A stretch of DNA of 64,000 nucleotides from Alphaproteobacteria bacterium (lineage in GTDB: Bacteria; Pseudomonadota; Alphaproteobacteria; SP197), in contig OZ241369.1 of the NCBI GenBank assembly GCA_965200215.1, forward strand, positions 1,027,787-1,091,786, written 5' to 3'. Shown here piece by piece: positions 9,136-33,012 of this stretch; the stretch's first letter is position 1, and each line of letters opens with the position of its first letter. A model generated the notes under the pieces. It did no database searches and was not told the DNA's origin. It saw nothing but the letters and a program-made list of their open reading frames with translations. The position numbers were made by a program, and so were the translations under genes.

Positions 9136-9157
9136 GGGCGACGAGGCGGTGGGGCTT

Positions 9158-13077: not shown

Positions 13078-13155
13078 GGTGGCTATAGCTCAGCAGGTTA
13101 GAGCGCCTGGTTGTGGTCCAGGAGGCCGTCGGTTCGAATCCGACTAGCCACCCCA
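13078..13155 (+). tRNA. tRNA-His (anticodon GTG) with encoded G-1 and CCA
   Basis: Cloverleaf by eye: GGTGGCTA / D-arm GCTCAGCAGGTTAGAGC / anticodon stem CCTGG-TTGTGGT-CCAGG / T-arm GTCGGTTCGAATCCGAC / TAGCCACC-CCA. Very similar to E. coli tRNA-His. Confidence 0.9.
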
Positions 13156-13756: not shown

Positions 13757-14932
13757 ATGACGCTGGCGGAACTGACGGGCGCGCTTCGCGCCCTGGCCGA
13801 AGGCCCCTTCGAGGAAGCCCGCGCGGCGCCGCCCGGCATCTACAGCTCGCCGCAATTCCTGGACCTGGAGCAGCGCCACATCTTCGCGAAGGAATGGATC
13901 TGCGCCGGGCGGGCCGAGACGCTGGCGAAGGCGGGCGACTATCTCACCATGGAGATCGCCGGGCAGCCGGTGCTGGTCGTCAAGGGGCGCGACGGCACCA
14001 TCCGCGCCTTCTCCAATGTCTGCCTGCACCGCATGAGCGTGCTGCTGGAAGGGCGCGGCAACCGCAGGACCGTCTCCTGCCCCTATCACGCCTGGAGCTA
14101 CGACCTCGACGGGCGGCTGCTGGCCGCCCCTCACATGGAGAAAAGCCCCGCCTTCCGCCGCCGCGACTACCGGCTGCCCCAACTGCGCTGCGAGCTGTGG
14201 GAGGGCTGGATCTACGTCTCGCTCGACCCCGACATCGAGCCGGTGGCAAGGCGCCTGCGGGCGGTGAAGGAGACGGTGACCGGCCGCTACCGTTTCGAGG
14301 ACTACCGGGAGGCGTGGCGCGAGGAGCGCGTCTGGAACGCCAACTGGAAGATCCTGGCCGAGAATTTCATGGAGAGCTACCACCTGTTCCGGCTTCACCG
14401 CGCCACGGTGGGGCCGCAATCGCGGGTGGACGAGATGCGGATGCCGGCCGGCGGGGCCGCCTTCAACCACCACTGGATCACCAAGGAATCGGATTTCACG
14501 CTGGCCAACGCCCATCCCGACTGCGGCTATCTGGAGGGCGAATGGCGGCGCACCACGGCGCTGATCACCATCTATCCCAGCCACATGATCACGCTGACGC
14601 CGGGCTATTTCTGGTATCTGGTGCTGCAACCCGACGGCAGCGAGCGGGTGCGGATCCTCTATGGCGGCGGCATGGCGCCCGACTTCGCCGCCGACGCCAG
14701 GGGCGCCGAGCATATCGGGGCCGCCAGGGCGCTGCTGGACGCGGTCAACGAGGAGGACCGGGTGGGCGTGGAGGCGGTCATGCGCGGCATGAAGGCCAGG
14801 CTCGCCCGCCCCGGCCATCTGAGCCATCTGGAGCGGCCCAATTTCGAGTTCTGGCAATATATCGCCCGCCGGGTGGCCGGCAGCGAGGCTGGGCCGGGGG
14901 CTAGTGGCCAGTGGCCGGGGGCTAGTGGTTAG
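13757..14932 (+). CDS. Rieske (2Fe-2S) ring-hydroxylating oxygenase alpha subunit family protein
   Basis: ORF track. Rieske motif CLHR...CPYHAW. Last approximately 7 codons and stop lie inside a heptamer array. Confidence 0.8.
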   Translation: MTLAELTGALRALAEGPFEEARAAPPGIYSSPQFLDLEQRHIFAKEWICAGRAETLAKAGDYLTMEIAGQPVLVVKGRDGTIRAFSNVCLHRMSVLLEGRGNRRTVSCPYHAWSYDLDGRLLAAPHMEKSPAFRRRDYRLPQLRCELWEGWIYVSLDPDIEPVARRLRAVKETVTGRYRFEDYREAWREERVWNANWKILAENFMESYHLFRLHRATVGPQSRVDEMRMPAGGAAFNHHWITKESDFTLANAHPDCGYLEGEWRRTTALITIYPSHMITLTPGYFWYLVLQPDGSERVRILYGGGMAPDFAADARGAEHIGAARALLDAVNEEDRVGVEAVMRGMKARLARPGHLSHLERPNFEFWQYIARRVAGSEAGPGASGQWPGASG

Positions 14933-18320: not shown

Positions 18321-19331
18321 TTACTTCCACACCGCTTCGGCTACGCGCATGAAGTTGCCGCCCATGACGCCGGCCACGTCGCCTTCGTCCCAGCCGCGCC
18401 GGATGAGCTCGGCGGCCAGTTCGATCAGCTGCGAGGGATGGGCGCAATCGACCCTGGGCCAGTCGTACTGGTCGGGCGGCCAGTATGCCGGGTTGCGCTG
18501 CGTCACCTGGGTCAGGTCGCCGCCGCCCTCGGTCTCGAAGGCGTAATCGAGGCCGATGCCGACATGGCGCGGCCCGATCAGATCGGCGTAGTAGGCGACG
18601 TGATCGGCCAGGGTGGCGGTGCGGATGTCGTTGGCGCCCAGGAAGATGCCGATGCCGACCACGCCCACCACGCCGCCGGTGGCGGCGCAGGCCCTGGCCT
18701 GGTCGTCGCGGATGTTGCGCTGGTGGTCGCACAGGGCGCGCGGGTTGGAATGGGAGAAGATGCAGGGGGCGCTGGAGAGTTCCATCGCCTCCATGGTGGT
18801 GGTGTAGGCGCTGTGCGAGCAATCGACGATCATGCCCAGCCGGTTCATCTCGCCGATGACGGCGCGCCCGAAATCGGTGAGGCCGGTATCCTGGTCGTGG
18901 CAGCCGCCGCCGGCCAGGTTGTTGCGGTTGTAGGCGAACAGCATCTGGCGGACGCCCAGCGCGTGATAGAGGGCGACCATATCGAGGGAGCCGTCGAGCG
19001 CGTTCATGCCCTCCAGGTCGAAGGTGACGGCGAGTTCGCCCGCCGCCTTCGCCCGGCGCACCCCGGCGACGCTGGAGACCAGCCGGTAGCCTTCGGCGGC
19101 GACGATCCAGCGTCGGAAGGCGGCCAGCGATTTGAGGGTGTCGCGCCAGTCCATGACGTCGTAGCCGACATCGACGCTGAGATAGTTCACGCCCGCCCGT
19201 TTCCAGATGGCGAGCTGCGAGAGATCGAGCGAGGGGTCGGGGCCGAAGCCGGCGTGGTCGTCCCAGATCACCTGCTGCTCGAAGAGCCGCCCGGCGGCGG
19301 CGCGCGCTTCGTCCGCTTTTTGCGCCATCAT
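18321..19331 (-). CDS. membrane dipeptidase (peptidase M19 family)
   Basis: ORF track; characteristic length and conserved His/Asp-containing blocks. Confidence 0.75.
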   Translation of the reverse strand: MMAQKADEARAAAGRLFEQQVIWDDHAGFGPDPSLDLSQLAIWKRAGVNYLSVDVGYDVMDWRDTLKSLAAFRRWIVAAEGYRLVSSVAGVRRAKAAGELAVTFDLEGMNALDGSLDMVALYHALGVRQMLFAYNRNNLAGGGCHDQDTGLTDFGRAVIGEMNRLGMIVDCSHSAYTTTMEAMELSSAPCIFSHSNPRALCDHQRNIRDDQARACAATGGVVGVVGIGIFLGANDIRTATLADHVAYYADLIGPRHVGIGLDYAFETEGGGDLTQVTQRNPAYWPPDQYDWPRVDCAHPSQLIELAAELIRRGWDEGDVAGVMGGNFMRVAEAVWK

Positions 19332-19384: not shown

Positions 19385-19560
19385 CAGGGTGGGGGTGGCC
19401 GGTGGCTAGTGGCTAGTGGCTAGTGGTTAGTGAGAGCGGGGGGTGGGGGTGGTGCCTGGCGGTGGGCGTGTGGTGCGTTGACAGGCCTTTGGCCCGTTTG
19501 CCGGCGGGACGCCGGCGCTCCCAGGGGGCAGGACGCTGGCGGCGGTGCCTGGGGCGTGGA
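19385..19560. repeat. composite GC-rich repeat element
   Basis: Motifs. Confidence 0.7.
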
Positions 19561-19629
19561 GCGCCGGATGGGGGCGTGTTAGCCTTGCCGGGCGCTGCCC
19601 AGTGGCGGCGGGAGAGCGGCGGTGGGGCG

Positions 19630-22600
19630 ATGAGTGGACGATTTTTCGAGCGCCCGATCCTGAACTCGCCCTATGAGCGTCCGCAGCGCTACTGGAAGCT
19701 GGACGAGCACGGCCAGCCCAGCGACCTGGTCGTGCCTTGCCGCCGGGAGGTCGATTTCATCACCCCGATCCCCCAACCCAGGAAGCGCAGGGGCGGCAGG
19801 GGGCAGCCGACGCTGGCCCTGGAAAACGAGGCGGCGCGGCGGCTGTCCAGCGAAGGGCAGCGATACGATCTGGCCACCGCCATCAACGCCATCCGCCAGC
19901 GGGTGGACCGCTGGCGGGCGCTGCCGGAGGCGCAATGGCGGGTGACGCCGGAAACCGCCCGTCTGCTCCGCCACTGGCGTGGCCATCGCTTCGCCGATTT
20001 CCGGCCCTTCTTCTGCCAGGTCGAGGCGGTGGAGACCGCAATCTGGCTGACCGAGGTCGCGCCGGCCATCGGCGGTACCGGGCGGGTGTTTCTCGACCAT
20101 CTGGCGACGGTCAACGACGAGGCCAATCCCGGCCTCGCCCGGCTGGCCCTGAAGCTGGCCACCGGGGCCGGCAAGACCACGGTGATGGCGATGCTGATCG
20201 CCTGGCAGACGGTCAACGCGGTGCGCCACCCGGGCAGCCGGCGCTTCACGCGCGGTTTTCTGGTGACGACGCCCGGCATCACCATCCGCGACCGGTTGCG
20301 CGTGCTCCAGCCCAACGACCCCGACAGCTACTATCGCAGCCGCGAACTGGTGCCCGCCGACATGCTGGCCGATCTGGAGCGGGCGAAGATCGTCATCACC
20401 AACTTCCACGCCTTCGGGCGGCGCGAGACGATGACGGTCTCCAAGGGCGGGCGGGCCCTGCTCCAGGGCCGCGGCGGGGCGCTGCCGTCGCTGGAGAGCG
20501 AAGGGCAGATGCTGCGGCGCGTCATGCCGGAACTGATGGGCATGAAGGGCGTCATGGCGCTGAACGACGAAGCCCATCACTGCTATCGGGAAAAGCCGGG
20601 CGAGGCGGACGAGGGCGAGCTGGCCGGCGACGAGCGCCGGGAAGCCGAAGACAACCGCGAGGCGGCCAGGCTCTGGATCTCCGGCCTGGAAGCGGTGGGG
20701 CGCAAGCTGGGGCTGGCCCGCGTCGTCGACCTTTCGGCGACGCCGTTCTTCCTGCGCGGTTCCGGCTATGCCGAAGGGACGCTGTTTCCCTGGACGGTGA
20801 GCGATTTCTCGCTGATGGACGCCATCGAATGCGGCATCGTCAAGCTGCCGCGGGTGCCGGTGGCCGACAACGACCCAAGCGCCGACGTCCCCAAATTCCG
20901 CAATCTGTGGGAGCATGTCGGCAAGCGGATGCCGAAGAAGGGCGCCGCCGGGGCGGGAAGCCTCGATCCCCTGAAGATCCCCGTCGAGCTGCAGACGGCG
21001 CTGGAAGCCCTCTATGGGCATTACGAGAGGACCTTCGAGCTGTGGCAGCAGGCCGGCATCGACGTGCCGCCCTGTTTCATCGTCGTGTGCAACAACACCG
21101 CCACCTCGAAGCTGCTGTTCGACTACATCGCCGGCTTCGAGCGCCGCCAGGGCGACGGCTCCACCGCGCCGGTGCCCGGGCGCCTGTCCCTGTTCCGCAA
21201 TTGGGACGAGAACGGCGTGCGCCTGGGGCGGCCCCGCACCGTCCTCATCGACAGCCGCCAGCTGGAGTCCGGCGAGGCCCTGGATCCGCGCTTCCGCGCC
21301 CTGGCCGCCGGCGAGATCGAACGCTTCCGCCGCGAGATCGTCGAACGCACCGGCGACCGCCGCCAGGCCGACAACCTTTCCGACCAGGAGCTGCTGCGCG
21401 AGGTTCTCAACACCGTCGGCAAGGCGGGGCGGCTGGGCGGCGACATTCGCTGCGTGGTCTCCGTCTCCATGCTGACCGAGGGCTGGGACGCCAACACCGT
21501 CACCCACATCCTGGGCGTGCGCGCCTTCGGGACGCAGCTTCTGTGCGAGCAGGTGGTGGGCCGCGCCCTGCGCCGCCATTGCTACGAGCTCAACGAAGAC
21601 GGCCTCTTCGACGCCGAATATGCCGACGTGTTCGGCATCCCCTTCGACTTCACGGCCAGGCCGGTGGCGGTGGCCCCGCAACCGCCGCGCAAGGTGGTGC
21701 AGGTGAAGGCCATCGCCGAGCGCGCCAGGCTGGAGATCCGCTTCCCGCGCGTCGCCGGCTACCGGGTGGAACTGCCCGAAGAACGCCTGGAAGCCCGTTT
21801 CGACGCCGATTCCACCCTGGTGCTGACGCCCGAATGTGTCGGCCCCTCCGTCACCCACAACGAGGGCATCGTCGGCGAAGGCGTGGACCTGCACATCAAG
21901 CACCTCGACGGCGTGCGCCGGGCCACCCTGCTCTTCCATCTCGCCAAGTATCTGCTGGAGACGAAATATCACGACGCCGACGAAGCGCCCAAGCAGCACC
22001 TGTTCGGCCAGCTGAAGTCGATCGCCGGCCAGTGGCTGGACCGCCATCTGGTCTGCAAAGGCGGCACCCGCCAGGCGCAGCTTCTCTACCGGCAGCTGGC
22101 CGACTTGGCCTGCGAGCGCATCGCGCGGGCCATCACCGTCCGCTATGCCGACCAGCGCCCGGTGACGGCGGTGCTCGACCCCTACAACCCGGAAGGCTCC
22201 ACCGCCTGGGTCCATTTCGCCACCTCAAAGGCCACCTGGCGCACCCATCCCGCCCGCTGCCACATCGACCACGTGGTCTGCGACAGCAATTGGGAGGCGG
22301 AGTTCTGCCGCGTCGCCGAGGGGCATCCGGCCGTCCTCGCCTATGCCAAGAACCAGGGCCTGGGACTGGAGATCCCCTGGAGCCAGGGGGCGGAGCCGCG
22401 CATCTATCTGCCCGATTTCGTGCTGCGCCTGGACGACGGGCGCGGAGCCGACGATCCGCTGCATCTGATCGTCGAGATCAAGGGCTGGCAAGGCGAGGAG
22501 GCCAAGGACAAGAAGGCGACGGTGGAGACCTACTGGATCCCCGGCGTCAACCGGCTGGCCCGCTTCGGGCGCTGGGCCTTCGCCGAGTTTCGCGACGTCT

Positions 22601-22665
22601 GGGAGATCGAGGACGGCTTTGCGCGGCTGGTGGCGGGGCTGCGGGGTGGGGGCGTTAGTGGATAG
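19630..22665 (+). CDS. type III restriction enzyme Res-like subunit (SF2 helicase with DEAH box LNDEAHHC + C-terminal endonuclease region)
   Basis: ATG 19630 within ORF 19423..22665. Walker A LATGAGKT. DEAH motif. 1011 aa. C-terminal stop inside a heptamer array. Confidence 0.75.
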   Translation: MSGRFFERPILNSPYERPQRYWKLDEHGQPSDLVVPCRREVDFITPIPQPRKRRGGRGQPTLALENEAARRLSSEGQRYDLATAINAIRQRVDRWRALPEAQWRVTPETARLLRHWRGHRFADFRPFFCQVEAVETAIWLTEVAPAIGGTGRVFLDHLATVNDEANPGLARLALKLATGAGKTTVMAMLIAWQTVNAVRHPGSRRFTRGFLVTTPGITIRDRLRVLQPNDPDSYYRSRELVPADMLADLERAKIVITNFHAFGRRETMTVSKGGRALLQGRGGALPSLESEGQMLRRVMPELMGMKGVMALNDEAHHCYREKPGEADEGELAGDERREAEDNREAARLWISGLEAVGRKLGLARVVDLSATPFFLRGSGYAEGTLFPWTVSDFSLMDAIECGIVKLPRVPVADNDPSADVPKFRNLWEHVGKRMPKKGAAGAGSLDPLKIPVELQTALEALYGHYERTFELWQQAGIDVPPCFIVVCNNTATSKLLFDYIAGFERRQGDGSTAPVPGRLSLFRNWDENGVRLGRPRTVLIDSRQLESGEALDPRFRALAAGEIERFRREIVERTGDRRQADNLSDQELLREVLNTVGKAGRLGGDIRCVVSVSMLTEGWDANTVTHILGVRAFGTQLLCEQVVGRALRRHCYELNEDGLFDAEYADVFGIPFDFTARPVAVAPQPPRKVVQVKAIAERARLEIRFPRVAGYRVELPEERLEARFDADSTLVLTPECVGPSVTHNEGIVGEGVDLHIKHLDGVRRATLLFHLAKYLLETKYHDADEAPKQHLFGQLKSIAGQWLDRHLVCKGGTRQAQLLYRQLADLACERIARAITVRYADQRPVTAVLDPYNPEGSTAWVHFATSKATWRTHPARCHIDHVVCDSNWEAEFCRVAEGHPAVLAYAKNQGLGLEIPWSQGAEPRIYLPDFVLRLDDGRGADDPLHLIVEIKGWQGEEAKDKKATVETYWIPGVNRLARFGRWAFAEFRDVWEIEDGFARLVAGLRGGGVSG

Positions 22666-22870
22666 TGGATAGTGGATAGTGGATAGTGGTTAGTGGCCGG
22701 TGGCCAGTAGCCAGTGGTCGGTGGGAGTGGGTGGCTGGTGGTGGTGCCTGGCGGCTGGGGGGTGGTGCGTTGACGGGCCTTTGGGCCGGTAGCCGGTGGC
22801 CGGTGGTCGGTGAGAGTGGGTGGCTGGCGGTGGTGCCTGGGGGTGGCTGACGGCGGCTGCCTGTTTTCAC
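22655..22870. repeat. composite GC-rich repeat element (heptamer arrays GGATAGT/GGTTAGT...)
   Basis: Motifs. Confidence 0.7.
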
Positions 22871-22984
22871 GCCGGGCGCTACCCTCTCGAGCGTTTCTTG
22901 ACGTATGCTGGAGCCCTGTCGGACGATGATTGCGATTTTGTCCGCTCTCATGGGCATGGACAGGGATTCGGGGAGGTTCTCTGG

Positions 22985-23206
22985 ATGTCCGATCCCGTCG
23001 TATTCGACACGCTCGCCTATGCGCGCCGCCTGAAAGAGGCGGGGGTCGACGACAAGCAGGCCGAAGCTCATGCGGAGGCGGCCCGCGACTCCATGATGGG
23101 GAGCGTCGCCACCAGAAGCGACCTTCTCAAGATGGAGAACAGCTTGACCTGGAAACTGCTTGGCGTCGCGGGCCTGCTGTTTGCCGCGCTCAAGCTTGTT
23201 CCTTGA
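22985..23206 (+). CDS. DUF1640-family coiled-coil/TM protein (third copy in window)
   Basis: ATG 22985 (MSDPVVFDTLAYARRLKEAG...TRSDL...WKLLGVAGLLFAALKLVP). Confidence 0.65.
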   Translation: MSDPVVFDTLAYARRLKEAGVDDKQAEAHAEAARDSMMGSVATRSDLLKMENSLTWKLLGVAGLLFAALKLVP

Positions 23207-23408
23207 GTGTCCCTGGATAGTGGCCGGTGGCCGGTGGCCAGTGGTCGGTGGGAGTGGGTGGCTGGCGGTGGTGCCTGGCGGCTGGGGAGTGGGGCGTTGA
23301 CGGGCCTTTGGGCCGTTTGCCGGTGGGGTGGCGGTGCTCCCAGGGGGCGGTGGCACCGGCGGTGCCTGCCTGTTTTCATGCCGGGGCGCTGCCCGATGAA
23401 AACACGTG

Positions 23409-23437
23409 TTGACGACGCCTGCCGCGCGTGGGACAAT
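23409..23437 (+). promoter_or_regulatory. putative sigma70-type promoter (TTGACG-17-GACAAT) in an AT-richer stretch upstream of the hypothetical/protease genes
   Basis: By eye; about 190 nt upstream of ATG 23627. Confidence 0.3.
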
Positions 23438-23626
23438 GCGATGTGTTGGCATCCGCCCCAAGCGAGTGGCCCGCTTACCTGCCGGGGGCGTGCGCCGAGA
23501 GCTTGGGGCTTCGTTTGTTCCTTTTTGCAACCCATATCCGGAGGGATCTTTCCTGAAGAGATCGCACCCCACCTGGGCCAAACGACATTTGACACCATGG
23601 AACAACCGCAAACGGGGAGGACGGAC

Positions 23627-23908
23627 ATGAGACCACAGAAGACGGCGGCAGCCGACAGCCAGCAGCAGGAGGTCGACCGCAATTACAAGGCCTTCAAGAC
23701 GATGCTTCCCGAACTCATCAAGAGCGACGCCGGCAGAACGGCCCTGATGCGCGACGGAAAGGTCGTGGCCTGCTTCGATACGGATCGCGACGCCATCCAG
23801 GCCGGCCGCACGATGTTCGAGGATCAGCGCTTCTCGATTCAGGAAGTCACCAATCGCGCCGTCGATCTTGGGTATTTCTCCCGTGTCGGCGTTCTCGGGG
23901 CGGTTTGA
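23627..23908 (+). CDS. hypothetical protein (93 aa)
   Basis: ORF with GGGGAGGA RBS 7 nt upstream; no recognisable family. Confidence 0.45.
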   Translation: MRPQKTAAADSQQQEVDRNYKAFKTMLPELIKSDAGRTALMRDGKVVACFDTDRDAIQAGRTMFEDQRFSIQEVTNRAVDLGYFSRVGVLGAV

Positions 23909-24332
23909 CTGGAACGCCGGCCTGATCTGGCAGGTCGGCTTCGTTTCTGGAGCCACCCCAGTGGCGGCTGCGGGCACTCCCGGCGCGCTTCATGTCTGCC
24001 CAGCACTCGTCGACACCGGTGCGACACGGACTTGTATTGCAAAATCCGTTGTCGAAGCCCTTGGCCTGCACTCCATCGGAAGAACAAGCATGGACACTGC
24101 TGGAGGAGCGGCCAATGCCAATATCTACGACACGCATATCGTTCTATTGACGGATCATGCGCAGAACCCAGACGGGACCGTCGATGTACAAGCTCAATTA
24201 TTTCATAATATCAGGGTGCTGGAATTCGTCGCCGATGGGAATACGCCCTATCAGGCCTTGATCGGGCGTGACATTCTGCGCATCGGTATGCTCACGATGT
24301 CGCGGGATGGCTATTTTTCCTTTGCGTTTTGA
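23868..24332 (+). CDS. retropepsin-like (clan AA) aspartic protease family protein; start uncertain (TTG 23868 or GTG about 23883, or frameshift fusion with the upstream ORF)
   Basis: Motifs ALVDTGATRTCI (D-T/S-G-A active site) and ALIGRDIL flap/helix region. Confidence 0.55.
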   Translation: MGISPVSAFSGRFDWNAGLIWQVGFVSGATPVAAAGTPGALHVCPALVDTGATRTCIAKSVVEALGLHSIGRTSMDTAGGAANANIYDTHIVLLTDHAQNPDGTVDVQAQLFHNIRVLEFVADGNTPYQALIGRDILRIGMLTMSRDGYFSFAF

Positions 24333-24389
24333 GCTACGACACGAACAGGGGACTCCCGCTCCTGAGCGCCGTCGAGCCAGGCTGAGCCT

Positions 24390-25208
24390 ATGGCGAAGAA
24401 GCCCGGTGGAAAGGGCGAGAGCATCGCAACCCTCGATCCCGACGCGCTCCAGAAGCTCCTGTGCGAGCGTCTGTGCGAGGACGTAAGGGTCGAACGCCGT
24501 CCCGACGGCGCGCTGATGCTGCGCGCCCATTTCCGCTTCCCGGACGGCGATGGCTACCCCATCCATCTTTGCCAGGCGCCCGCCGGCGGGCTGCGGCTGT
24601 CGGATCGCGGCCACACCCTCATGCATCTGAGCTATGAGCACGACGTCGACATGTTCATGGACGGCACCCGCGCCATGCTGCTCGAACGCATCCTGACGGA
24701 GAGCGGTTTGCAGTGGGAGGGCGGCGCCTTGTGCCTGGACACCGCCCCGGAACGGCTGCCGGAGGCGCTGTTCCGCTTCGGCCAGGCGCTCACCAGGGTA
24801 TACGACCTGACCTTCCTCTCCCGTTCCAATGTCGGTTCCACCTTTTACGACGATCTCGCCGACCTTCTCCGCCAGCTGGTGGACGAGGACAAGATGCAGC
24901 GCGATTACCGGCCGGACGTGCCCAATGCCGACGCCTATCCGGTGGATTACCGCATCGAGGGCAAGGACGGCGTGCCGCTGTTCCTCTACGGCGTGCCCAA
25001 TCGCGACAAGGCGCGGCTAACGACCGTCATGTTGTCGCACTTCCATCGCCACGCGCTCGATTTCGAGTCCATCGTCGTGTTCGAGGACCAGGCCGAGATG
25101 CCCAGGATGGACCTGGCCCGCCTTTCGGACGTCGGCGGGGAGATGGTCGCATCGCTGGAATCGCGGGAGGATCTCGCACGCAAGCTGCGGTGGCGGATTG
25201 CGGCGTGA
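24390..25208 (+). CDS. hypothetical protein (DUF1828/DUF1829-like two-domain protein; assignment tentative)
   Basis: ORF track; codon usage typical of the host GC. Confidence 0.5.
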   Translation: MAKKPGGKGESIATLDPDALQKLLCERLCEDVRVERRPDGALMLRAHFRFPDGDGYPIHLCQAPAGGLRLSDRGHTLMHLSYEHDVDMFMDGTRAMLLERILTESGLQWEGGALCLDTAPERLPEALFRFGQALTRVYDLTFLSRSNVGSTFYDDLADLLRQLVDEDKMQRDYRPDVPNADAYPVDYRIEGKDGVPLFLYGVPNRDKARLTTVMLSHFHRHALDFESIVVFEDQAEMPRMDLARLSDVGGEMVASLESREDLARKLRWRIAA

Positions 25209-25214
25209 TGGCGC

Positions 25215-25600
25215 GGTGGGGGGTAGTGGCTGGTGGGTAGTGGATAGTGGATAGTGGATAGTGGTTAGTGGCCGGTAGCCAGTGGCCGGTGGTCGGTGGG
25301 AGTGGGTGGCTGGTGGCGGTGCCTAGCGGCTGGGGGGTGGTGTGTCGACGGGGCTTTGGGCCGTTTGCCGGTGGGGTGGCGGCGCTCGGGGGAATTTCGT
25401 GCGCGGGCGGGCCGGACGGCCCGCCGGGGGGCGGGACGCTGGCGGCGGTGCCTGGGGGTGGTGGCTGGCGGTGGCTGCCTGTTTTCATGCCGGGGCGCTG
25501 CCCCTCTCCTCCAGGTGCGCCCGTTCCCACTGGCCACTGGCCACCGGCCACCGGCTACTGGCCACCGGCCACTAACCACTAACCACTAGCCACTGGCCCC
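25215..25600. repeat. composite GC-rich repeat element (two heptamer arrays in inverted orientation flanking core)
   Basis: Motifs. Confidence 0.7.
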
Positions 25601-25665
25601 GCCCGGCGTATCGACGGTTTGGCTTTTCCGGGCCACACTGCGGGTGTGGCGTGGGGGTGGATTTC

Positions 25666-28600
25666 ATGGTGGGGAAGCGCAGGGGGGCGAAGAGCAAGGG
25701 GGTTGCCGCCTTTACCCATGAGGGGGCGCGGCGGGCGAACATTCCCACCGCCGAGCTCGACGCGGTGATGGCCGAGGGCGAGAAGGCGGCGGTTCGCATC
25801 GCCTATGAGCGCCGCAACCGAGATCTGGACCCGCAGCTGGTCTGGCGCGGCAAGGACGAGCAGGACCAGGCCGATCTGGTGGTCCAGGCGCCGCCGCTCT
25901 ACATCCAGGAGAAGGTGCACCCCAAGGCGCTGATCGACGACCTGCTGCGCCAGTCGAAGCGGCGGCGCGACGAGGCGGCCGAAGAGGCCCCGGACCTGTT
26001 CGCCGATTTCAACGGCCTGCCCGAAGGCGCCGCCCGAACCGAGTTCTACCGCCACGACGCCAACTGGTCGAACCGCATGATCCTGGGCGACGCGCTGCGG
26101 GTGATGGCCTCGCTGGCCGAGCGCGAGGGCCTGCGCGGCAAGGTGCAGGCGATCTATATCGACCCGCCCTACGGCATCCGCTTCAACTCCAACTTCCAGT
26201 GGTCCACCGGCAGCCGCGACGTGAAGGACGGCAAGGCGGCGCATATCACCCGCGAGCCGGAGCAGGTGAAGGCCTTTCGCGACACCTGGCGCGACGGCAT
26301 CCATTCCTATCTCTCCTATCTGCGCGACCGGCTGACGGTGGCCCGCGAGCTGCTGGCCCCGAGCGGCTCGGTATTCGTGCAGATCGGCGACGAGAACGTC
26401 CACCGGGTGCGGGCGGTGATGGACGAGGTGTTCGGGGAGGGGAATTTCGTCAACCAGATCAACTGCCGCACGAATAGCGGAACCACAAGAGGCGACTCAC
26501 TCAAGCGAACGAACGACTACCTGCTTTGGTACGCAAAGAATATCGAAAGCAAGAAGTTTCGGCGATTGCTGGTTGAGCGAGACGTCGAAACAAACATGTA
26601 TAGTCAGCTCCTTTTTGAGGATTTGTCAGTTCGTCCCATGACTCAGGAAGAGAAGAAAAAGCCAACGCTAATTCCCGACACGGCTAGAGCATATAGGAAA
26701 TTACCACTCCACTCGATGAACGCCGGAGACCATACACCGCGGAAAGCATTCGGAAGGTATTGGAAAATACCATCTAACCGCAGTTGGCGCCATTCCCTGG
26801 CCGGTTTCGACCGGCTCTTGCGGTCATCTCGAATACAAGCAGACCTGAGTGCTCTTAGCAGCCGCTATTTCCACAGCGACTATATCGCCTCCGAGCTAAC
26901 CGAGACTTGGGTGGATACAGGCCCCGAAGTGGACAAGTCCTACGTAGTCCAGACGTCCGAGCGGATTGTCCAACGCTGCCTGCTGATGACCACCGACCCC
27001 GGCGACCTGGTGCTGGACCCGACCTGCGGTTCCGGCACCACCGCCTATGTCGCCGAGCAATGGGGCCGGCGCTGGATCACCATCGACACCTCGCGGGTGG
27101 CGCTGGCGCTGGCCCGGGCGCGGATCATGGGCGCGCGCTATCCCTGGTATATCCTGGCCGACAGCCCGGAAGGGCAGAGGAAGGAAGCGGAACTGGACCG
27201 GCGCGCGCCTTCCGAGGCGGCGACCGGCGGCGATGTCCGCCAGGGCTTCGTCTATCGGCGGGTGCCGCATGTGACGCTGAAATCGATCGCCAACAATGCG
27301 GAGATCGATGCGATCTGGGAGAGGTGGGAGGGGGTGTTGGGGGCGTTGCGGAGTCAACTATCAGTTGCCAGTGGCCAGTCGCCAGTGGCCAGTGACCGGC
27401 AACCGGCGACTGGCGACCGGCCACCGGCCACCGGCAACCGGCCACTGGAGGAATGGCAGATTCCCCGCGAGGCTGGCGCCGGCTGGCCCGACGAGGCGAA
27501 GGCGGCGCATGCCGAGTTCTGGCAGGCGCGCATCGGACGGCAGAAGGAGATCGACGCCTCCATCGCCGCCAGGGCCGACAGCGAATATCTCTACGACAAG
27601 CCCTATGAGGACAGGGAGCGCATCCGCGTCGCCGGCCCGTTCACGGTGGAAAGCCTGGCGCCGCACCGCACCGTGGCCAGCGAGGGGGAAGGCGCCGCCG
27701 AAGACGGCCACGGATACCACGGCGGCGGGGCCTTCCCGGAACGCGATTTCACCGCCCTGGTGCTGGAGCAGCTGCGGGCTGCCGGCGTGCAGCAGGCCCG
27801 CAAGGACGACCGCATCGACATCGCCTCCATCGAGGGCTGGCCGGGGCGTTCCATCTGCGCCACGGGGCGCTTTCGCGAAGGCGGGGCCGAACGCCGGGCC
27901 GGCATCCTGATCGGCCCCGAATTCGGCACCGTTTCCAAGCCCGACCTGACCGCCGCCGCCCGCGAGGCGGCCGAGGCCGGTTTCGACGCGCTGATCGCCT
28001 GCGCCTTCAGCTACGACGCCCATGCCAGCGAGTTCGACCGCCTGGGCCGGGTGCCGGTGCTGAAGGCGCGCATGAACGCCGATCTGCACATGGCCGGCGA
28101 GCTGAAGAACACCGGCAAGGGGAACCTGTTCGTGGTGTTCGGGGAGCCTGATATAGAAGTGGCCGGTGGCCGGTGGCTAGTGGCCAGAAACGGGAAGATG
28201 ATCGCGCGTTATGAGCACGTCAAAGAGCTATCAGGACTTGGAAGTCTGGAAGAAATCAATGGAGCTGGCGGAAGAGGTCTATCGGCTCTCTGCCGGGTGG
28301 CCGGCGGAGGAGCGATTCGGTCTGACCGGTCAGATGCGCCGCGCGACGGTGTCCATCCCGGCGAACATCGCGGAGGGAGCGGAGCGGCACGGAACGCGGG
28401 AGTTTCTCCACTTTCTGGGGATAGCGAGCGGCTCCCTGGCGGAAACGGAGACCCTTCTGATTCTGGCCCGGAGGCTGGGGATGTCTCCGCCCGAACGGAT
28501 TTCACCGCTTCTGGAACGAGCCGGGGAGATCGGACGGATGCTCAACGGCCTCAAGCGATCGCTGCGATCGAGGCATTGAACGACGGCGACTTCCCGCTTT

Positions 28601-28944
28601 CACTGACCACCGGCCACTGGCTACAGGTCGCCATTCGCGGTATCGACATTTATCGCCCCGACACGGGTCAGATTCACAGCGACGGTCCCGACGGCATCGC
28701 GCTGTGGTTCGTGGACAGCGACTACAACGAGGAGAGCTTTTTCGTTCGCCAGGCCTATTTCCTGGGCGCCAACGACCCCTACAAGGCGCTGAAGACGACG
28801 CTGAAGGCCGAGATCGACCCGCAGGCCTGGGCGAGCCTGAACAGCGACACCTCCCGCCCCTTCCCCGCCCCCGCCTCGGGCCGCATCGCCGTCAAGGTCA
28901 TCAACCACCTGGGCGACGAGGCGATGAAGGTGTTCCGGGTGTGA
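25666..28944 (+). CDS. type III-like Mod DNA methyltransferase (beta-class N6A/N4C MTase: motif IV IYIDPPYG precedes motif I DPTCGSGTT), mosaic ORF with AT-richer TRD (about 26460-26900) and two repeat-associated insertions; integrity uncertain
   Basis: ORF track 25651..28944 (ATG 25666 alternative). MTase motifs. Conserved C-terminal module ...RIAVKVINHLGDEAMKVFRV. Confidence 0.65.
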   Translation: MVGKRRGAKSKGVAAFTHEGARRANIPTAELDAVMAEGEKAAVRIAYERRNRDLDPQLVWRGKDEQDQADLVVQAPPLYIQEKVHPKALIDDLLRQSKRRRDEAAEEAPDLFADFNGLPEGAARTEFYRHDANWSNRMILGDALRVMASLAEREGLRGKVQAIYIDPPYGIRFNSNFQWSTGSRDVKDGKAAHITREPEQVKAFRDTWRDGIHSYLSYLRDRLTVARELLAPSGSVFVQIGDENVHRVRAVMDEVFGEGNFVNQINCRTNSGTTRGDSLKRTNDYLLWYAKNIESKKFRRLLVERDVETNMYSQLLFEDLSVRPMTQEEKKKPTLIPDTARAYRKLPLHSMNAGDHTPRKAFGRYWKIPSNRSWRHSLAGFDRLLRSSRIQADLSALSSRYFHSDYIASELTETWVDTGPEVDKSYVVQTSERIVQRCLLMTTDPGDLVLDPTCGSGTTAYVAEQWGRRWITIDTSRVALALARARIMGARYPWYILADSPEGQRKEAELDRRAPSEAATGGDVRQGFVYRRVPHVTLKSIANNAEIDAIWERWEGVLGALRSQLSVASGQSPVASDRQPATGDRPPATGNRPLEEWQIPREAGAGWPDEAKAAHAEFWQARIGRQKEIDASIAARADSEYLYDKPYEDRERIRVAGPFTVESLAPHRTVASEGEGAAEDGHGYHGGGAFPERDFTALVLEQLRAAGVQQARKDDRIDIASIEGWPGRSICATGRFREGGAERRAGILIGPEFGTVSKPDLTAAAREAAEAGFDALIACAFSYDAHASEFDRLGRVPVLKARMNADLHMAGELKNTGKGNLFVVFGEPDIEVAGGRWLVARNGKMIARYEHVKELSGLGSLEEINGAGGRGLSALCRVAGGGAIRSDRSDAPRDGVHPGEHRGGSGAARNAGVSPLSGDSERLPGGNGDPSDSGPEAGDVSARTDFTASGTSRGDRTDAQRPQAIAAIEALNDGDFPLSLTTGHWLQVAIRGIDIYRPDTGQIHSDGPDGIALWFVDSDYNEESFFVRQAYFLGANDPYKALKTTLKAEIDPQAWASLNSDTSRPFPAPASGRIAVKVINHLGDEAMKVFRV
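27355..27450. repeat. palindromic heptamer-repeat array inserted in-frame inside the Mod coding region
   Basis: GCCAGTG/GCCAGTC units followed by their inverse (CCGGCAA/CCGGCGA...); translates as VASGQSPVASDRQPATGDRPPATGNRP. Confidence 0.75.
28211..28579 (+). CDS. four-helix-bundle protein (23S rRNA intervening-sequence protein family-like), nested inside the Mod ORF in a different frame
   Basis: ORF track. Sequence MSTSKSYQDLEVWKKSMELAEEVYRLS...IPANIAEG...ETETLLILARRLG matches my recollection of that family. Flanked by heptamer repeats at about 28160-28195 and 28595-28625. Confidence 0.6.
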   Translation: MSTSKSYQDLEVWKKSMELAEEVYRLSAGWPAEERFGLTGQMRRATVSIPANIAEGAERHGTREFLHFLGIASGSLAETETLLILARRLGMSPPERISPLLERAGEIGRMLNGLKRSLRSRH

Positions 28945-28948
28945 GGCC

Positions 28949-30079
28949 ATGGCGGGGCTGGACTGGATCACCATCGAGGGTTTCAAGAGCATCGCCTCCA
29001 TCGAGAGGCTGCCGCTGCGCCCGATCAACGTGCTGATCGGCGCCAACGGTTCGGGGAAGTCGAATTTCGTCGAGGCCTTTTCGTTTCTGCACGCGATACG
29101 GTCCAGGAAGCATCACGACCATGTCATGCGCGCGGGGGGCGGCGACAGGATTCTTCATTTCGGCGCGCGAACGACGCCCCAGTTGAAGCTTCACATCTCT
29201 TTCGAAGAACAAGTGTATCAATATGAGATAGCACTGGCGCCGGACGATGGAGATCACCTCTTTCCGTCGGGGGAATGTACCTATTTCTGGAACAAACATG
29301 TGTATGAACCTTACATCGAGCCCCTTATGGGAAGCCATGGCCATGCGGGCATCAGCCGCCCGTATTTCAAGCCAACAACACCCACAGCGAATTATGTCCA
29401 GAAGCACCTGGACAGCTGGCGCCTGTATCACTTCCCGGATACCGGCGCCGCATCGCCGCTGAAGAAGACGGGCGACGTAAACGACAACCGCTTTCTGCGG
29501 CCCGACGGCTCCAACCTGGCGGCGTTCCTGTATCGGCTGCGCGAGACGGAGCAGGACCGCTACCGGCTGATACGGGACACGGTGCGCCTGGCGGCGCCGT
29601 TCTTCGAGGATTTCGCGCTCGAACCCCTGGTCCTGCACGAGGACAAGATCCCCCTGGAGTGGAAGCACCGGGGGAAAGACGCCTATTTCGACGCCTCCTC
29701 CCTTTCGGACGGCACCCTGCGCTTCATGGCGCTGGCGACGCTGCTGCTTCAGCCGCAGACGCTGCGGCCCTCGGCCATCCTCCTGGACGAGCCGGAACTG
29801 GGCCTGCACCCCTATGCCATCGCGCTTCTCGCCTCGCTGATCGGGCAGGCTTCGGCCGAGACCCAGGTGATTCTGGCCACCCAGTCCTCGCTGCTGCTGG
29901 ACCATTTCAGCCCCGAAGACGTGCTGGTGGCGGAGCGGGCGCGCGGGGCCACCACGCTGACCCGGCTGAAGCCCGAAGAGCTGAAGGAATGGCTGGACGA
30001 CTACAGCCTGGGCCAGCTGTGGGAGAAGAACGAGTTCGGCGGGCGCCCCTCACCCGAAGAGGCGGGCGAGAGGGGATGA
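28949..30079 (+). CDS. AAA_21/ABC-type ATPase (OLD/abortive-infection-like ATPase; Walker A GANGSGKSN, Walker B LLDEPELGLHP)
   Basis: ORF track; start immediately after the Mod stop. Confidence 0.7.
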   Translation: MAGLDWITIEGFKSIASIERLPLRPINVLIGANGSGKSNFVEAFSFLHAIRSRKHHDHVMRAGGGDRILHFGARTTPQLKLHISFEEQVYQYEIALAPDDGDHLFPSGECTYFWNKHVYEPYIEPLMGSHGHAGISRPYFKPTTPTANYVQKHLDSWRLYHFPDTGAASPLKKTGDVNDNRFLRPDGSNLAAFLYRLRETEQDRYRLIRDTVRLAAPFFEDFALEPLVLHEDKIPLEWKHRGKDAYFDASSLSDGTLRFMALATLLLQPQTLRPSAILLDEPELGLHPYAIALLASLIGQASAETQVILATQSSLLLDHFSPEDVLVAERARGATTLTRLKPEELKEWLDDYSLGQLWEKNEFGGRPSPEEAGERG

Positions 30080-30321
30080 CGCGCCTGCTCGTGCATGTGG
30101 AAGGCCAGACGGAGGAGAGTTTCGTCGACCGGATTCTGGCGCCTCACCTTTACCGGCGCGGCTTTTCTTCGATCGGCGCCCGCCTGCTCGGCAACGCCCG
30201 CCAGCGCGAGCGGCGCGGCGGCATCAAGCCCTGGCACGCGGCCCGCAGGGACATCCTGGGCCATCTGCGGCAGGACCGCGAGGCCGTGGCCAGTGGCCGG
30301 TGGCTAGTGGTTAGTGGCTAG
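30076..30321 (+). pseudogene. DUF4276-like gene remnant (N-terminal about 80 aa: MTRLLVHVEGQTEESFVDRILAPHLY...), truncated by insertion of a repeat element
   Basis: ATGA start/stop overlap with the ATPase. Family members are about 200 aa (from memory). ORF ends inside a long heptamer array. Confidence 0.5.
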
Positions 30322-30560
30322 TGGTTAGTGGCTAGTGGTTAGTGGCTAGTGGTTAGTGGCTAGTGGTTAGTGGTCGGTGGGCGGTGGCCAGTAGCCGGTG
30401 GCTAGTGGTTAGTGGTTAGTGGGAGCGGGTGGTGGGGGTGGTGCCTGGCGGTGGGGTGTGGTGCGTTGACGGGCCTGCGGCCCGTTTGCCGGCGGGACGC
30501 CGGCGCTCCCAGGGGGGCGCCGGGTGGCGGGGGCGCGGTAAGGGCGGCAACCATGGCGAG
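30290..30560. repeat. composite GC-rich repeat element with long heptamer array ((GGCTAGT GGTTAGT) x7)
   Basis: Direct inspection. Confidence 0.8.
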
Positions 30561-30640
30561 GAGGCGATGCGAGGTGTTTCGGGTGTGACGGCGACTCCAA
30601 CATCCAGTATCGTATGCGACACGGCTTGGGGGGATTGAGC

Positions 30641-32116
30641 ATGAGCGGACCTGCCAGCGATTCTTCGCCCAATCGGTCGCCGAAGGCTCCCGATGTGCGC
30701 ATCTCCGTCAGCAATTTCGGCCCCATCGCGAAGGGAAGCATCGACCTTCGGCCCATGAACATCTTCGTCGGGCCGAGCAACACGGGCAAGACCTATTTTG
30801 CCACCTTGATCTATGCAATTCATCGAATCACGAGGGGTTTTCCGCGACTCCCTCCAACTATGAGCTACATTTTCAACGATGTTGAAAATTTTGCGGGGGT
30901 GATTTACCAGATTGTTAAGAATTTTGACTCTGGACAAAGAAATCATCCTGGATCCGGGCGCGACCGGATTCAGCCCACGCTTATCGATCACAATCCCGTG
31001 GCCCATGACTGGGAAATTGAATTAGAGCGTTGCTTCGATGTCGGTGCTCTTTCCGAACTGATTCAGACTCAAAGCGAATCAACCGGAGCAAAGATCGATC
31101 TGTCAATCGAGGATAAAAAGAGCCTCCTTTGGAATTTTCATGTAAAGGTGCCGACTCACGGTATTCGGGGCGATGGAAAGATAGGGAATTTCAAAATTGA
31201 GCACATATTTCCTGATTTCGAAAAGAAAGCTGAAAAAGTATTCTCGGCCAATTCAATAATAGAGGCTATAACCAACCTACAGAAACTGTTCGAATTCGAG
31301 AAATCAAACGAATCCGACGTGTACTACCTGCCATCCGACAGAGGCGGTCTCATACATAGCCACCCCGCTATCGCAATATCTTTGCTTAAACGTGCAACTC
31401 GACTGAACACCAAGCGCCATTCGGAGATCCCCACTTTCTCCGGGGTTATGACCGATTTCATGCGGCATATCATCGCCTATGAGGATTCCGAACTGCGTGA
31501 CGAAAAGCCGGAGAACGAGTTGGCGAAAATCGCGAGCGAATTGGAAAGCCGGGTGCTCGATGGAAGGATCGAGACTGTCCGGGCAGCGTCCCGCGGCTAT
31601 CCTGACGTGGTGTATCGGCCGGAGGGAATGGAAAAGGGCATGCGGTTGAATCGCGCCTCGTCCATGGTATCCGAACTCGCGCCGGTGGTCCTCTTCATCC
31701 GTGGCCATGTTCGCGTCGGCGACACCGTAATCATCGACGAGCCGGAAGCCCATCTTCATCCCGCCGCGCAGACCGAGATGGCGACGGCGCTGGCGCGTCT
31801 GGTGCGGGCCGGCGTTCGGGTGGTGATGACCACGCACAGCGAATGGCTGCTCCAGGAGATCGGCAACCTGATGCGGGAGGGGGAGTTGGGGGAAGGGAAT
31901 GGCGACTCTCCGAGTCTTCATCCTCGCGACGTCGGCGCCTGGCTATTCAAGAAGAAAGGATCGGAGGGCTCCAACGTGGAGGAGATTCGATTCGACCGCA
32001 TCGAAGGCATCGGGCCGCCGGATTACGAAGACGTCGCCGAAAGCCTCTATAACCGCTCGGCAGAGCTGCAGAACCGCCTCGCAGAGACGGACGGCGGCGG
32101 CGAGTCGGGGGCATGA
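30641..32116 (+). CDS. AAA-type ATPase (AAA_15/21-like; Walker A VGPSNTGKTYF, Walker B VIIDEPEAHLHP), AT-richer gene
   Basis: ATG 30641 (GGGGGA RBS) within ORF 30614..32116. Confidence 0.7.
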   Translation: MSGPASDSSPNRSPKAPDVRISVSNFGPIAKGSIDLRPMNIFVGPSNTGKTYFATLIYAIHRITRGFPRLPPTMSYIFNDVENFAGVIYQIVKNFDSGQRNHPGSGRDRIQPTLIDHNPVAHDWEIELERCFDVGALSELIQTQSESTGAKIDLSIEDKKSLLWNFHVKVPTHGIRGDGKIGNFKIEHIFPDFEKKAEKVFSANSIIEAITNLQKLFEFEKSNESDVYYLPSDRGGLIHSHPAIAISLLKRATRLNTKRHSEIPTFSGVMTDFMRHIIAYEDSELRDEKPENELAKIASELESRVLDGRIETVRAASRGYPDVVYRPEGMEKGMRLNRASSMVSELAPVVLFIRGHVRVGDTVIIDEPEAHLHPAAQTEMATALARLVRAGVRVVMTTHSEWLLQEIGNLMREGELGEGNGDSPSLHPRDVGAWLFKKKGSEGSNVEEIRFDRIEGIGPPDYEDVAESLYNRSAELQNRLAETDGGGESGA

Positions 32117-32589
32117 GCGCCGCCCTTGCGCGCATCCGCTCGAAGGTGGGGGAAAACAGTCTCTCCAAGTCGTGCGGGCGGGATGGTTGCCGCGCGTATA
32201 TGAAGGGCATACCGGCTTGCAGGGTCATCGTCGATATGGATAAAGCCCCCGCCGCCCGACATGCGGGAGGTAAGCGATGCGATTTCGTTCTTTTCTTTAT
32301 CCAGGAAAGCGGAAAGCTCATCGTGGCGCCTATCGAGCTCAAGAGCGGCCATGTCGACGGCTCCGAGGCGGCGGAACAATTGCGCAATGGAACGGGGTTT
32401 GCAGACCGCGCCTCGCCGGCAAAGCCCGAGCCTCATTGCCGTCCGATTCTGTTCCACGGCAAGGGCATACATCCACAACAACGCAAGGCGCTCAACCGCA
32501 GCAAGATCACCTTTCGCGGCAGCAAGCTTACCATAATGACGGCCCGCTGCAACCGGCCGCGCAATCTGGCTGGCGTTCTGGGCATGTGA
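32113..32589 (+). CDS. small protein with putative PD-(D/E)xK nuclease-like motif (D in CDFVLFF ... IELKSG), translationally coupled (ATGA) to the upstream ATPase
   Basis: ORF track; motif spotted by eye, not verified by profile search. Confidence 0.5.
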   Translation: MSAALARIRSKVGENSLSKSCGRDGCRAYMKGIPACRVIVDMDKAPAARHAGGKRCDFVLFFIQESGKLIVAPIELKSGHVDGSEAAEQLRNGTGFADRASPAKPEPHCRPILFHGKGIHPQQRKALNRSKITFRGSKLTIMTARCNRPRNLAGVLGM

Positions 32590-32619
32590 TCGGCCGAAGC
32601 GGCGTGCGCGCGGATCCGC

Positions 32620-32990
32620 AGGCCGGGGGCGGCGGTGGCCAGTGGTCAGTCGCGGGTGGTGGGGGTGGTGCCTGGCGGTGGGGTCGGTGCGTTGACGGGC
32701 CTTTGGCCCGTTTGCCGGCGGGACGCCGGCGCTCCCAGGGGGCGGGACGCTCGGTCAGTGGTTAGTGGCTAGTGGTCAGTGGCCGGGCGCCAGTGGTGCG
32801 GGTGGTGTGTGGCGGTGCCTGGCGGTGGGGACGGTGCGTTGACGGGCCTTTGGCCCGCTTGCCGGCGGGACGCCGGCGCTCGGGGGATGGTGTATGGGCG
32901 GGCCTGACGGCCCGCCGGGGGGCGTGACGCTGGCGGCGGTGGCTGGGGGCGCGGGTGGTAGGGGCGGTACCTGAAGGTGGGGGGTGGCTT
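32620..32990. repeat. composite GC-rich repeat element (two cores)
   Basis: Motifs. Confidence 0.7.
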
Positions 32991-33012
32991 GGTGGGGGGT
33001 GCTGGTTTTGAG

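Follow-up and report, generated by a model that had tools for sequence, protein, structure and literature searches.

When the two genes of a type III-like restriction-modification (R-M) system stand several genes apart, are they a pair broken up by insertions or a unit that carries passengers? This question is raised by a 64,000-nucleotide stretch of an Alphaproteobacteria genome (the window; contig OZ241369.1 of assembly GCA_965200215.1), in which a restriction gene, res, is separated from a methyltransferase gene, mod, by unrelated genes and repeats and is followed by two ATPase modules. A first-pass annotation had described this region as a mosaic defence island; the features it listed are all present at or near the positions it gave. 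Here we show that the layout recurs across a protein family, and we conclude that the region is very probably a single type III-like R-M unit of the BPTD_3080 family, horizontally mobile and with cargo embedded in it. As a representative of a known R-M family, the island itself is unremarkable yet instructive. The surprising part lies elsewhere: a conserved gene of the 23S rRNA intervening-sequence (IVS) type is nested out of frame in mod and tied to heptamer repeats.

The res and mod genes

The res gene (19630-22665, plus strand) encodes a superfamily 2 (SF2) helicase with a C-terminal PD-ExK nuclease motif. Its start at 19630 agrees with the gene call in a 99%-identical relative and its open reading frame (ORF) ends at 22665. 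Against the NCBIfam model NF046055 (BPTD_3080 family restriction endonuclease), whose cut-off is 800 bits, the product scored 1285.9 bits; the alignment pairs residues 75-1068 of the long ORF with positions 1-968 of the 970 in the model. A Walker A motif (ATGAGKT), a DEAH box (NDEAHH), motif VI (QVVGRALRR) and a C-terminal PD...EIK can all be read from the translation. Family score and visible motifs support the first call of a Res-like helicase/endonuclease. At least 8000 homologues were scored, from many phyla, and the best 120 share 71-99% identity with the window protein. In PADLOC it matched only the REase_III and, weakly, the REase_I models, and it scored 13.9 bits against the NCBIfam type III endonuclease equivalog (cut-off 564).

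The mod gene (25666-28944, plus strand) encodes a large beta-class N6-adenine methyltransferase of the type III class. The protein scored 112.9 bits against Pfam N6_N4_Mtase and 1233 bits against the PADLOC MTase_III model PDLC03632, and it matched the structures of the EcoP15I Mod (E 2.4e-12) and of the Helicobacter pylori Mod. DPPY stands upstream of the FxGxG-type AdoMet-binding motif, which is the beta-class order, and the catalytic motifs are all intact. The gene had been called a beta-class Mod and the two genes together a type III-like pair; profiles, structure matches and motifs sustain both claims. Mods of the family reach 900-1100 residues, with a large additional C-terminal region; a model of this region in the window protein (pLDDT 67.7) found no significant match among PDB folds (best E 0.09).

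In beta-class methylases specificity is set by a central recognition domain. The target-recognition domain of the window Mod (26416-26940, residues ~251-425) is also the first AT-rich patch of the island. Among 47 complete family Mods, identity to the window protein is 0.18-0.48 over residues 251-425 versus 0.77-0.98 in the catalytic blocks. The window allele is that of a locus with different flanks (L002) and is non-homologous to those of the sister strain (L001) and of L013 and L049.

Further downstream in mod, an in-frame mini-hairpin made of a heptamer array (27331-27448, net +63 nt, 9 x 7) was found only in the window and in L001. The linker that holds it is a second insertion hot spot of Mod; L048, L050 and L070 carry unrelated insertions of roughly 50-80 residues at the same spot. 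Other rearrangements of mod were seen in three loci. In L086 and L087 (7517-10380), Mod is spread over two ORFs, one with the N-terminal methylase and one of 459 aa with the C-terminal part; in L087 an insertion sequence (IS) element (DDE_3) lies between them. The two loci represent decay of the same system. L088 carries a 290-aa duplicate of the Mod C-terminus with insert read-through (9001-9873), about 4 kb 3' of a full-length Mod, from which an AAA_21 gene and a Schlafen/AlbA_2 gene separate it. The duplicate suggests that cargo can enter via recombination at the 3' end of mod.

Layout across the family

We compared 85 loci, namely the 80 best matches of one scan and a few others, from Alphaproteobacteria, Nitrospirales, Latescibacterota, Spirochaetia, Acidobacteriota, Chloroflexota and other lineages. 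A Mod homologue lies 3' of Res on the same strand in 83 of them. The res-mod gap is shorter than 150 nt in 13 of these 83 loci, 150-500 nt in 7, 500-1500 nt in 38, 1500-3000 nt in 18 and longer than 3000 nt in 7, with a median of 892 nt and a maximum of 8206 nt; in the window, where res also comes first, it is 3.0 kb. The first-pass annotation had presented the split of res and mod by an unrelated cassette as a peculiarity and the res-then-mod order as an anomaly. Neither description holds, since 63 of the 83 gaps measure at least 500 nt and 83 of the 85 loci share the order.

The gaps contain 160 mechanically called ORFs in 103 clusters. Toxin-antitoxin families are found among them (MNT with HepT, PIN, Fic), together with nuclease or defence families (GmrSD, OLD-family nuclease, HEC-01, NYN, YhcG/DUF1016) and further families such as DUF1828 (8 loci), Bro-N, DUF4062 with HATPase_c_4, ImmA/IrrE and DUF3800. 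On the 3' side of mod, other loci carry IetA/IetS, UvrD-type helicases or, as in the window, an AAA_15 gene paired with a 158-aa gene. Res, an open slot and mod are the standard design of the family, and cargo sits in the slot and 3' of mod.

Mobility and exchanged segments

The island is a run of genes on one strand, delimited by codon-position GC. On its left stands a Peptidase_M19 (dipeptidase) gene (18321-19331, minus strand) and on its right the gene of an FGE-sulfatase-domain protein (32977-34917). Two related loci are informative. In L002, where Res is 80% identical, the flanking genes are entirely different. Its block comprises Res, a 157-aa gene, DUF1828, a 93-aa gene, Mod, AAA_15 and the gene for the 158-aa protein; at the nucleotide level it is 67-89% identical to the window. 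Because L002 carries this set in another chromosomal context, most of the genes must travel together.

L001 is a sister strain with shared flanks; its flanking DNA is 94.6% and its dipeptidase-res segment 97.8% identical to the window. Homology between the two strains breaks at 23892-24429, 26451-26968, 29101-29393 and 30592-31639. The first break is a retropepsin-like gene, in place of which L001 has an unrelated 157-aa gene; the second is the Mod target-recognition domain, and the last two fall within the two ABC ATPases. The retropepsin-like gene and the HEC-01 module, the latter missing from L002 and L013, are thus lineage-specific additions or replacements. Breaks two and four correspond to the first two of the three AT-rich patches of the first-pass annotation. 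The other two, of low GC (0.55-0.59), had gone unlisted. No break falls in the third patch (32150-32560), which can be aligned with L001 at about 82% until the fetched locus nears its end. The mosaic look thus comes mainly from the exchange of variable segments between alleles. This comparison with a related genome at the same locus, which the first-pass annotation had proposed as a check, thus gave a divided answer: one gene has indeed been replaced, and the patches, read earlier as signs of acquisition in pieces, are mostly intragenic variable segments.

Outside the AT-rich patches, GC is 0.65-0.72 in the island and 0.72-0.82 in the flanks (about 72-82% for the genome). It drops at all three patches that had been noticed in the GC-rich background, to 0.51-0.53 (26400-27000), 0.44-0.53 (30600-31600) and about 0.60 (32200-32600). 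A GC content below that of the flanks supports the view that the island is foreign DNA. Of the earlier proposal of horizontal acquisition in pieces, the horizontal acquisition is therefore retained; the pieces hold only in part, as most of the gene set moves together in L002. There is no tRNA at the island borders, the sole tRNA of the window being a tRNA-His at 13079-13155, about 6 kb off the island. Integrases and other recombinase families had no match among the island proteins scanned (Pfam, PADLOC, NCBIfam), an Rfam scan of 17-36 kb revealed no known RNA family, and a scan for promoters and terminators gave sites no more frequent than in shuffled sequence.

A gene nested inside mod

Within mod lies a 477-nt IVS-type element (28158-28634, plus strand), which has inverted heptamer-like ends (28157-28184 and 28601-28632). 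It contains a gene for a 122-aa four-helix-bundle protein (28211-28579, plus strand), one base off the mod frame, which scored 132.6 bits against PF05635 (23S rRNA intervening-sequence protein) and 128.6 bits against TIGR02436 (four helix bundle protein). About 91% of family Mods in the sample of loci lack the element. Six carriers were fetched (the window, L001, L003, L014, L016 and L084), from hosts among which are Alphaproteobacteria, Nitrospirales and Desulfobacteraceae; the small proteins share 52-70% identity with that of the window. Inverted heptamer-like arrays stand at the ends of the element in every host.

Across the nested ORF, the mod frame has no stop codon in any of the six loci; the remaining frame has 4-10. 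When synonymous codons were shuffled with the small protein held fixed, the mod frame was open in 25%, 2.8%, 0.95%, 18%, 0.5% and 21% of cases, and seven of eight PF05635 genes located outside mod have 2-19 stops in the equivalent frame. Among the best 120 Mod homologues, 102 have both anchor motifs around the insertion site; 73 of these carry an insert of matching length, nearly always with exactly 162 residues between the anchors, and 16 are without insert.

Within the insert, nucleotides vary most where they are third in a codon of the small gene (0.43-0.50 versus 0.21-0.30), which suggests that the small protein is the main target of selection. The nested ORF appears to be under purifying selection, and the mod frame seems to be constrained mainly to stay open. 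Strong selection on the mod-frame peptide of the insert was considered and rejected on the same ground. In the model of the Mod C-terminal region (pTM 0.62), both extremities of the insert fall within strands and helices modelled with confidence (pLDDT 83-95) and about 75 central residues are disordered, a picture compatible with a hairpin turn that tolerates the insertion. We infer that full-length Mod is made across the insert.

The ends of the element may pair into a terminal stem of 25 bp, in which 88.7% of cells are paired over the six loci. Five pairs show changes on both sides; 17 of 500 shuffles of these six sequences reach the observed score, so that the covariation support is modest. 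Overall, the element is built like a 23S rRNA intervening sequence, but it is seated in a protein-coding gene with the frame preserved. Our literature search revealed no description of a PF05635-type element in a protein-coding gene with the host frame kept.

Heptamer arrays and related elements

The plus strand of the window has 25 arrays of at least four units of the heptamer YRGTRGN (typically TAGTGGN, CGGTGGC or CAGTGGC), the minus strand has one, and none was found in shuffled sequence. They stand in nearly every intergenic spacer from 600 to 37000. Because TAG recurs every 7 nt, an array closes each of the three frames with a stop codon. The sister strain has such arrays too, and they are essentially missing from the other taxa that were checked, in which five loci yielded a single array. 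They belong to the host genome and have spread into the spacers of the island.

The same units recur in mod. End units of the mod element, for instance GTGGTTAGTG and GTGGATAGT in the Desulfobacteraceae and Alphaproteobacteria copies, are the array unit of the window host, and the 63-nt hairpin at 27331-27448 is built from the same heptamer units as the element ends. We hypothesize a causal link between the mod element and the host arrays.

Comparable architectures are found around PF05635 genes elsewhere, the eight examined being those of L089 (NC_016586.1, about 14398-14745) and L090-L096. Seven of the eight lie between inverted short tandem-repeat arrays, with units of 7 nt in six cases and 8 nt in one; the eighth is accompanied by direct repeats. 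The heptamer sequence varies by species. Several of these genes are located within operons, for instance between cas6 and cas4 of type I-D CRISPR loci or between ribonucleotide reductase genes of cyanobacterial plasmids. One of the eight lies in a genuine 23S rRNA gene: a tblastn search of plasmids with the small protein led to Azospirillum lipoferum, where the DNA on either side of the copy reads as 23S rRNA and inverted GAGGACR heptamers bracket it. In Coxiella, the 23S element has a 28-bp terminal stem, tandem heptamers upstream of its S23p ORF and is excised by RNase III (PMC4990558).

The slot and the downstream modules

The slot of the window contains four genes and three copies of a repeat of about 170 nt (D6), as the first-pass annotation had counted, with all genes on the same strand. 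A host-specific intergenic repeat element precedes res (19390-19560, plus strand; heptamer array 19393-19427 and a G-rich tail). Repeat copy 1 (22630-22850, plus strand; D6 match 22630-22799) holds a 10-unit heptamer array (22656-22725), and copy 2 (23157-23400, plus strand; D6 match 23157-23326) an array at 23218-23252. Between them stands a gene for a 73-aa coiled-coil/transmembrane protein (22985-23206, plus strand), with a weak CCDC90/DUF1640-like match below the Pfam cut-off; bracketed in this way, it resembles a small repeat-flanked cassette. Copy 3 (25205-25605; D6 match 25205-25374) combines a plus-strand array (25224-25300) with a facing minus-strand array (25526-25595) in an ORF-less hairpin-type element, whose 54-nt arms are 91% complementary. 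No remnant of a four-helix-bundle gene was found between these inverted arrays (25300-25526), and no further copy of such a gene elsewhere in the window.

The next gene encodes a 93-aa protein without family match (23629-23908, plus strand), also present in the res-mod slot of L001, L002, L013 and L049; a promoter-like TTGACG-17-GACAAT lies ahead of it at 23409-23437. It is followed by the retropepsin-like gene (clan AA, DTGA; 23868-24332, plus strand; Pfam gag-asp_proteas 32.7 bits), in an AT-richer block. The 93-aa and retropepsin-like genes may form a module. C-terminal retropepsin-like remnants were observed after the 93-aa gene in L002 (14803-15179) and L013 (14331-14759). The last gene of the slot encodes a DUF1828 protein (24390-25208, plus strand; Pfam DUF1828 60.1 bits), which resembles PDC-M24B of PADLOC (E 4.9e-13). 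DUF1828 is the most recurrent slot cargo, and its usual partner in L002 and L004 is a 157-aa gene, the two reading frames overlapping or abutting. A complete PDC-M24 system was rejected, as only the B component (DUF1828) matched; the window neighbour of DUF1828 and the 157-aa partners of L001, L002 and L004 had no match among PADLOC models.

Two modules follow mod, and PADLOC matches support the earlier view of them as ATPase-based defence candidates. The first opens with a HEC-01A-type ABC ATPase (AAA_21; 28949-30079, plus strand), matched over its full length by PDLC04175 (439 bits, E 2.4e-132). Its stop codon is overlapped by the start (30076) of a HEC-01B gene (DUF4276/TOPRIM-like; 30076-30321, plus strand), which is a stub of 81 aa, versus 196-228 aa in full-length DUF4276 relatives, and matches positions 9-81 of the 230-position profile. 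After about 70 conserved codons it runs into a 19-unit heptamer array (30291-30423, plus strand), which stands in place of the 3' two thirds of the gene and whose start is the exact truncation point. The AAA_21-like ATPase and truncated DUF4276 partner recognized at first pass are therefore as described, and since the TOPRIM-like partner is truncated, HEC-01 is probably inactive here.

The second module starts with another ABC ATPase (AAA_15; 30614-32116, plus strand) that resembles PD-T4-4_A (E 3.2e-34) and PDC-M47A (E 1.5e-24), with the best stretch confined to residues ~302-420. The N-terminal half (30592-31639) of this ATPase is rich in AT and shows no homology with L001. The partner is a 158-aa putative PD-(D/E)xK nuclease (32113-32589, plus strand), with a weak match to PDC-M47B (E 0.0045; 2.9e-5 for the L002 orthologue) and none to PD-T4-4_B in PADLOC. 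The PD-(D/E)xK-like character proposed earlier gains from a D57...E75-x-K77 pattern that is invariant in four orthologues; it finds no backing in a profile search of PDB, which returned nothing significant. Two other systems were tried and rejected: for MADS, the MAD3 ATPase model NF047739 reached 107.4 bits (cut-off 420), and Hma had no model matching Res, nor one among the best 25 of 51 PADLOC matches for Mod.

Discussion

The findings suggest how the unit may work and evolve. The central target-recognition domain of Mod would read the site in which the enzyme methylates adenines, and Res, an SF2 ATPase fused to a PD-ExK nuclease, would cut unmodified DNA. The cargo in the slot and downstream may act in defence or as toxin-antitoxin systems. 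Recombination has swapped variable segments, namely the recognition domain of Mod and parts of the ABC ATPases; in the latter we infer that the exchanged segments also set specificity. The host-specific heptamer-repeat element has colonised the spacers.

Several points weigh against this reading. Res falls just under the cut-off of Pfam ResIII (22.3 versus 22.5 bits), and a PDB sequence search with it matched no solved structure. The full-length Mod model, built from 57 close homologues, is poor (pLDDT 51, pTM 0.29) and was not used for fold search, and a Mod with two lineage-specific insertions could be impaired. The locus sample consists mostly of metagenome-assembled genomes and the ORFs in its gaps were called mechanically. 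The functional link between cargo and R-M genes would follow from position only, and HEC-01 gave no phage protection in its only published test (10.1101/2024.01.29.577857).

Could the island nevertheless be a patchwork assembled gene by gene, in which a classical res/mod pair was broken by independent insertions and R-M maybe uncoupled? The absence of HEC-01 from L002 and L013, which implies its addition in this lineage, the retropepsin-like gene where the sister strain has an unrelated 157-aa gene and the host repeats between most genes would all fit. However, the res-to-mod order with a gap is the rule in the family (the order in 83 of 85 loci, 500 nt or more between the genes in 63 of 83), the core gene set is common to L002 in a different genomic context and most AT-rich patches are intragenic variable segments; we thus consider the patchwork improbable. 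We regard it as similarly improbable that the R-M genes are decaying remnants, with Mod killed by the 477-nt and 63-nt insertions and its frame left open by chance in GC-rich DNA. The shuffled window sequence does leave the mod frame open 25% of the time, HEC-01B is clearly truncated in the same island and L086 and L087 have split, IS-damaged Mods. Against this, relatives of lower GC likewise keep the frame open, although chance alone would do so in only 0.5-3% of cases. Moreover, the insert length is fixed, with 162 residues between anchors in most of 73 homologue clusters, the catalytic motifs are intact, flanking Mod residues are 70-98% conserved and, in the C-terminal model, the insert ends are confident (pLDDT 83-95), only the centre being disordered. 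A single mobile R-M unit with embedded cargo accordingly remains our preferred reading.

How the nested element acts is a separate matter. It may act as RNA: RNase III would cut the stem, split the mod mRNA and free the message of the four-helix-bundle protein, so that Mod dosage would be regulated or Mod made in two pieces. The conserved 25-bp terminal stem, with some compensatory changes, and an architecture that matches the RNase III-excised 23S rRNA elements (PMC4990558) speak for such a role. But cleavage would leave a 5' mod fragment without stop codon, the conserved open frame argues for read-through, and the covariation is modest (17 of 500 shuffles, six sequences) while inverted repeats at the DNA level could explain the pairing; we therefore find it rather unlikely. 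Tentatively, and as a reading less likely than not, we propose that IVS-type elements are mobile into protein-coding genes without breaking them. The mod insert would then be a stable dual-coding case, retained in many phyla, whose small protein works with R-M or in the spread of the element, and the strand-biased, genome-wide YAGTGGN arrays of the host would be ORF-less derivatives or targets of such elements. The same relation may link cyanobacterial heptamer repeats and the many four-helix-bundle genes.

As a single system with cargo, this widespread type III-like family is best annotated as one unit, and its res-mod slot becomes a place to seek new defence genes; the embedding approach, published with Hma, BREX, DISARM and type I systems, thereby gains a further carrier. 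Where such islands contain AT-rich patches, these can reflect exchangeable specificity segments instead of the limits of genes. The nested gene is a bacterial example of a conserved gene overlap that lends itself to study, and it puts the function of the 23S intervening-sequence protein family, for which none is known according to the Coxiella study (PMC4990558), in a genetically testable context.

The system has clear counterparts. In the classical type III operon, mod precedes res and the two genes are adjacent; such systems hemimethylate an asymmetric site, and their ATP-dependent cleavage requires two sites in inverse orientation. Like EcoP15I and EcoP1I, the BPTD_3080-type system has two subunits, a beta-class N6-adenine Mod with a central recognition domain and a Res that, to judge by the motifs read from its sequence, would join an SF2 ATPase to a C-terminal PD-(D/E)xK nuclease. 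Unlike them, it has res before mod, the two genes are usually not adjacent, and the Mod has 900-1100 residues with a C-terminal region that matches no known fold. The embedded cargo recalls the 'guilt by embedding' of Payne et al. 2024, described for Hma, BREX, DISARM and type I R-M (10.1101/2024.01.29.577857): accessory defence or toxin-antitoxin cassettes are likewise housed between genes of a multi-gene system, and HEC-01, PDC-M24B-like, PDC-M47-like, GmrSD and OLD families are shared. The carrier is however type III-like here, and one cargo gene lies within a host gene. We found no paper on embedding in the BPTD_3080-type res-mod family, and a search on BPTD_3080, DUF1828 and four-helix-bundle genes in R-M loci gave nothing relevant.

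An accessory gene housed in an R-M locus is also exemplified by PrrC, embedded in the type Ic EcoprrI locus (PMC12707154), and in both cases the arrangement suggests functional coupling; the cargo families are different, and sensing of R-M inhibition by the cargo is without evidence in our island. Finally, the nested gene has its closest parallel in the 23S rRNA intervening sequences with an S23p ORF of Coxiella, Leptospira and others (PMC4990558), which also enclose a PF05635 ORF within heptamer-built, stem-capable terminal inverted repeats. There, the element resides in helix 25 or 45 of the 23S rRNA gene and the ORF is reported to be decaying in Coxiella (PMC4990558), whereas here it is seated in the coding sequence of mod and the ORF is apparently under purifying selection.

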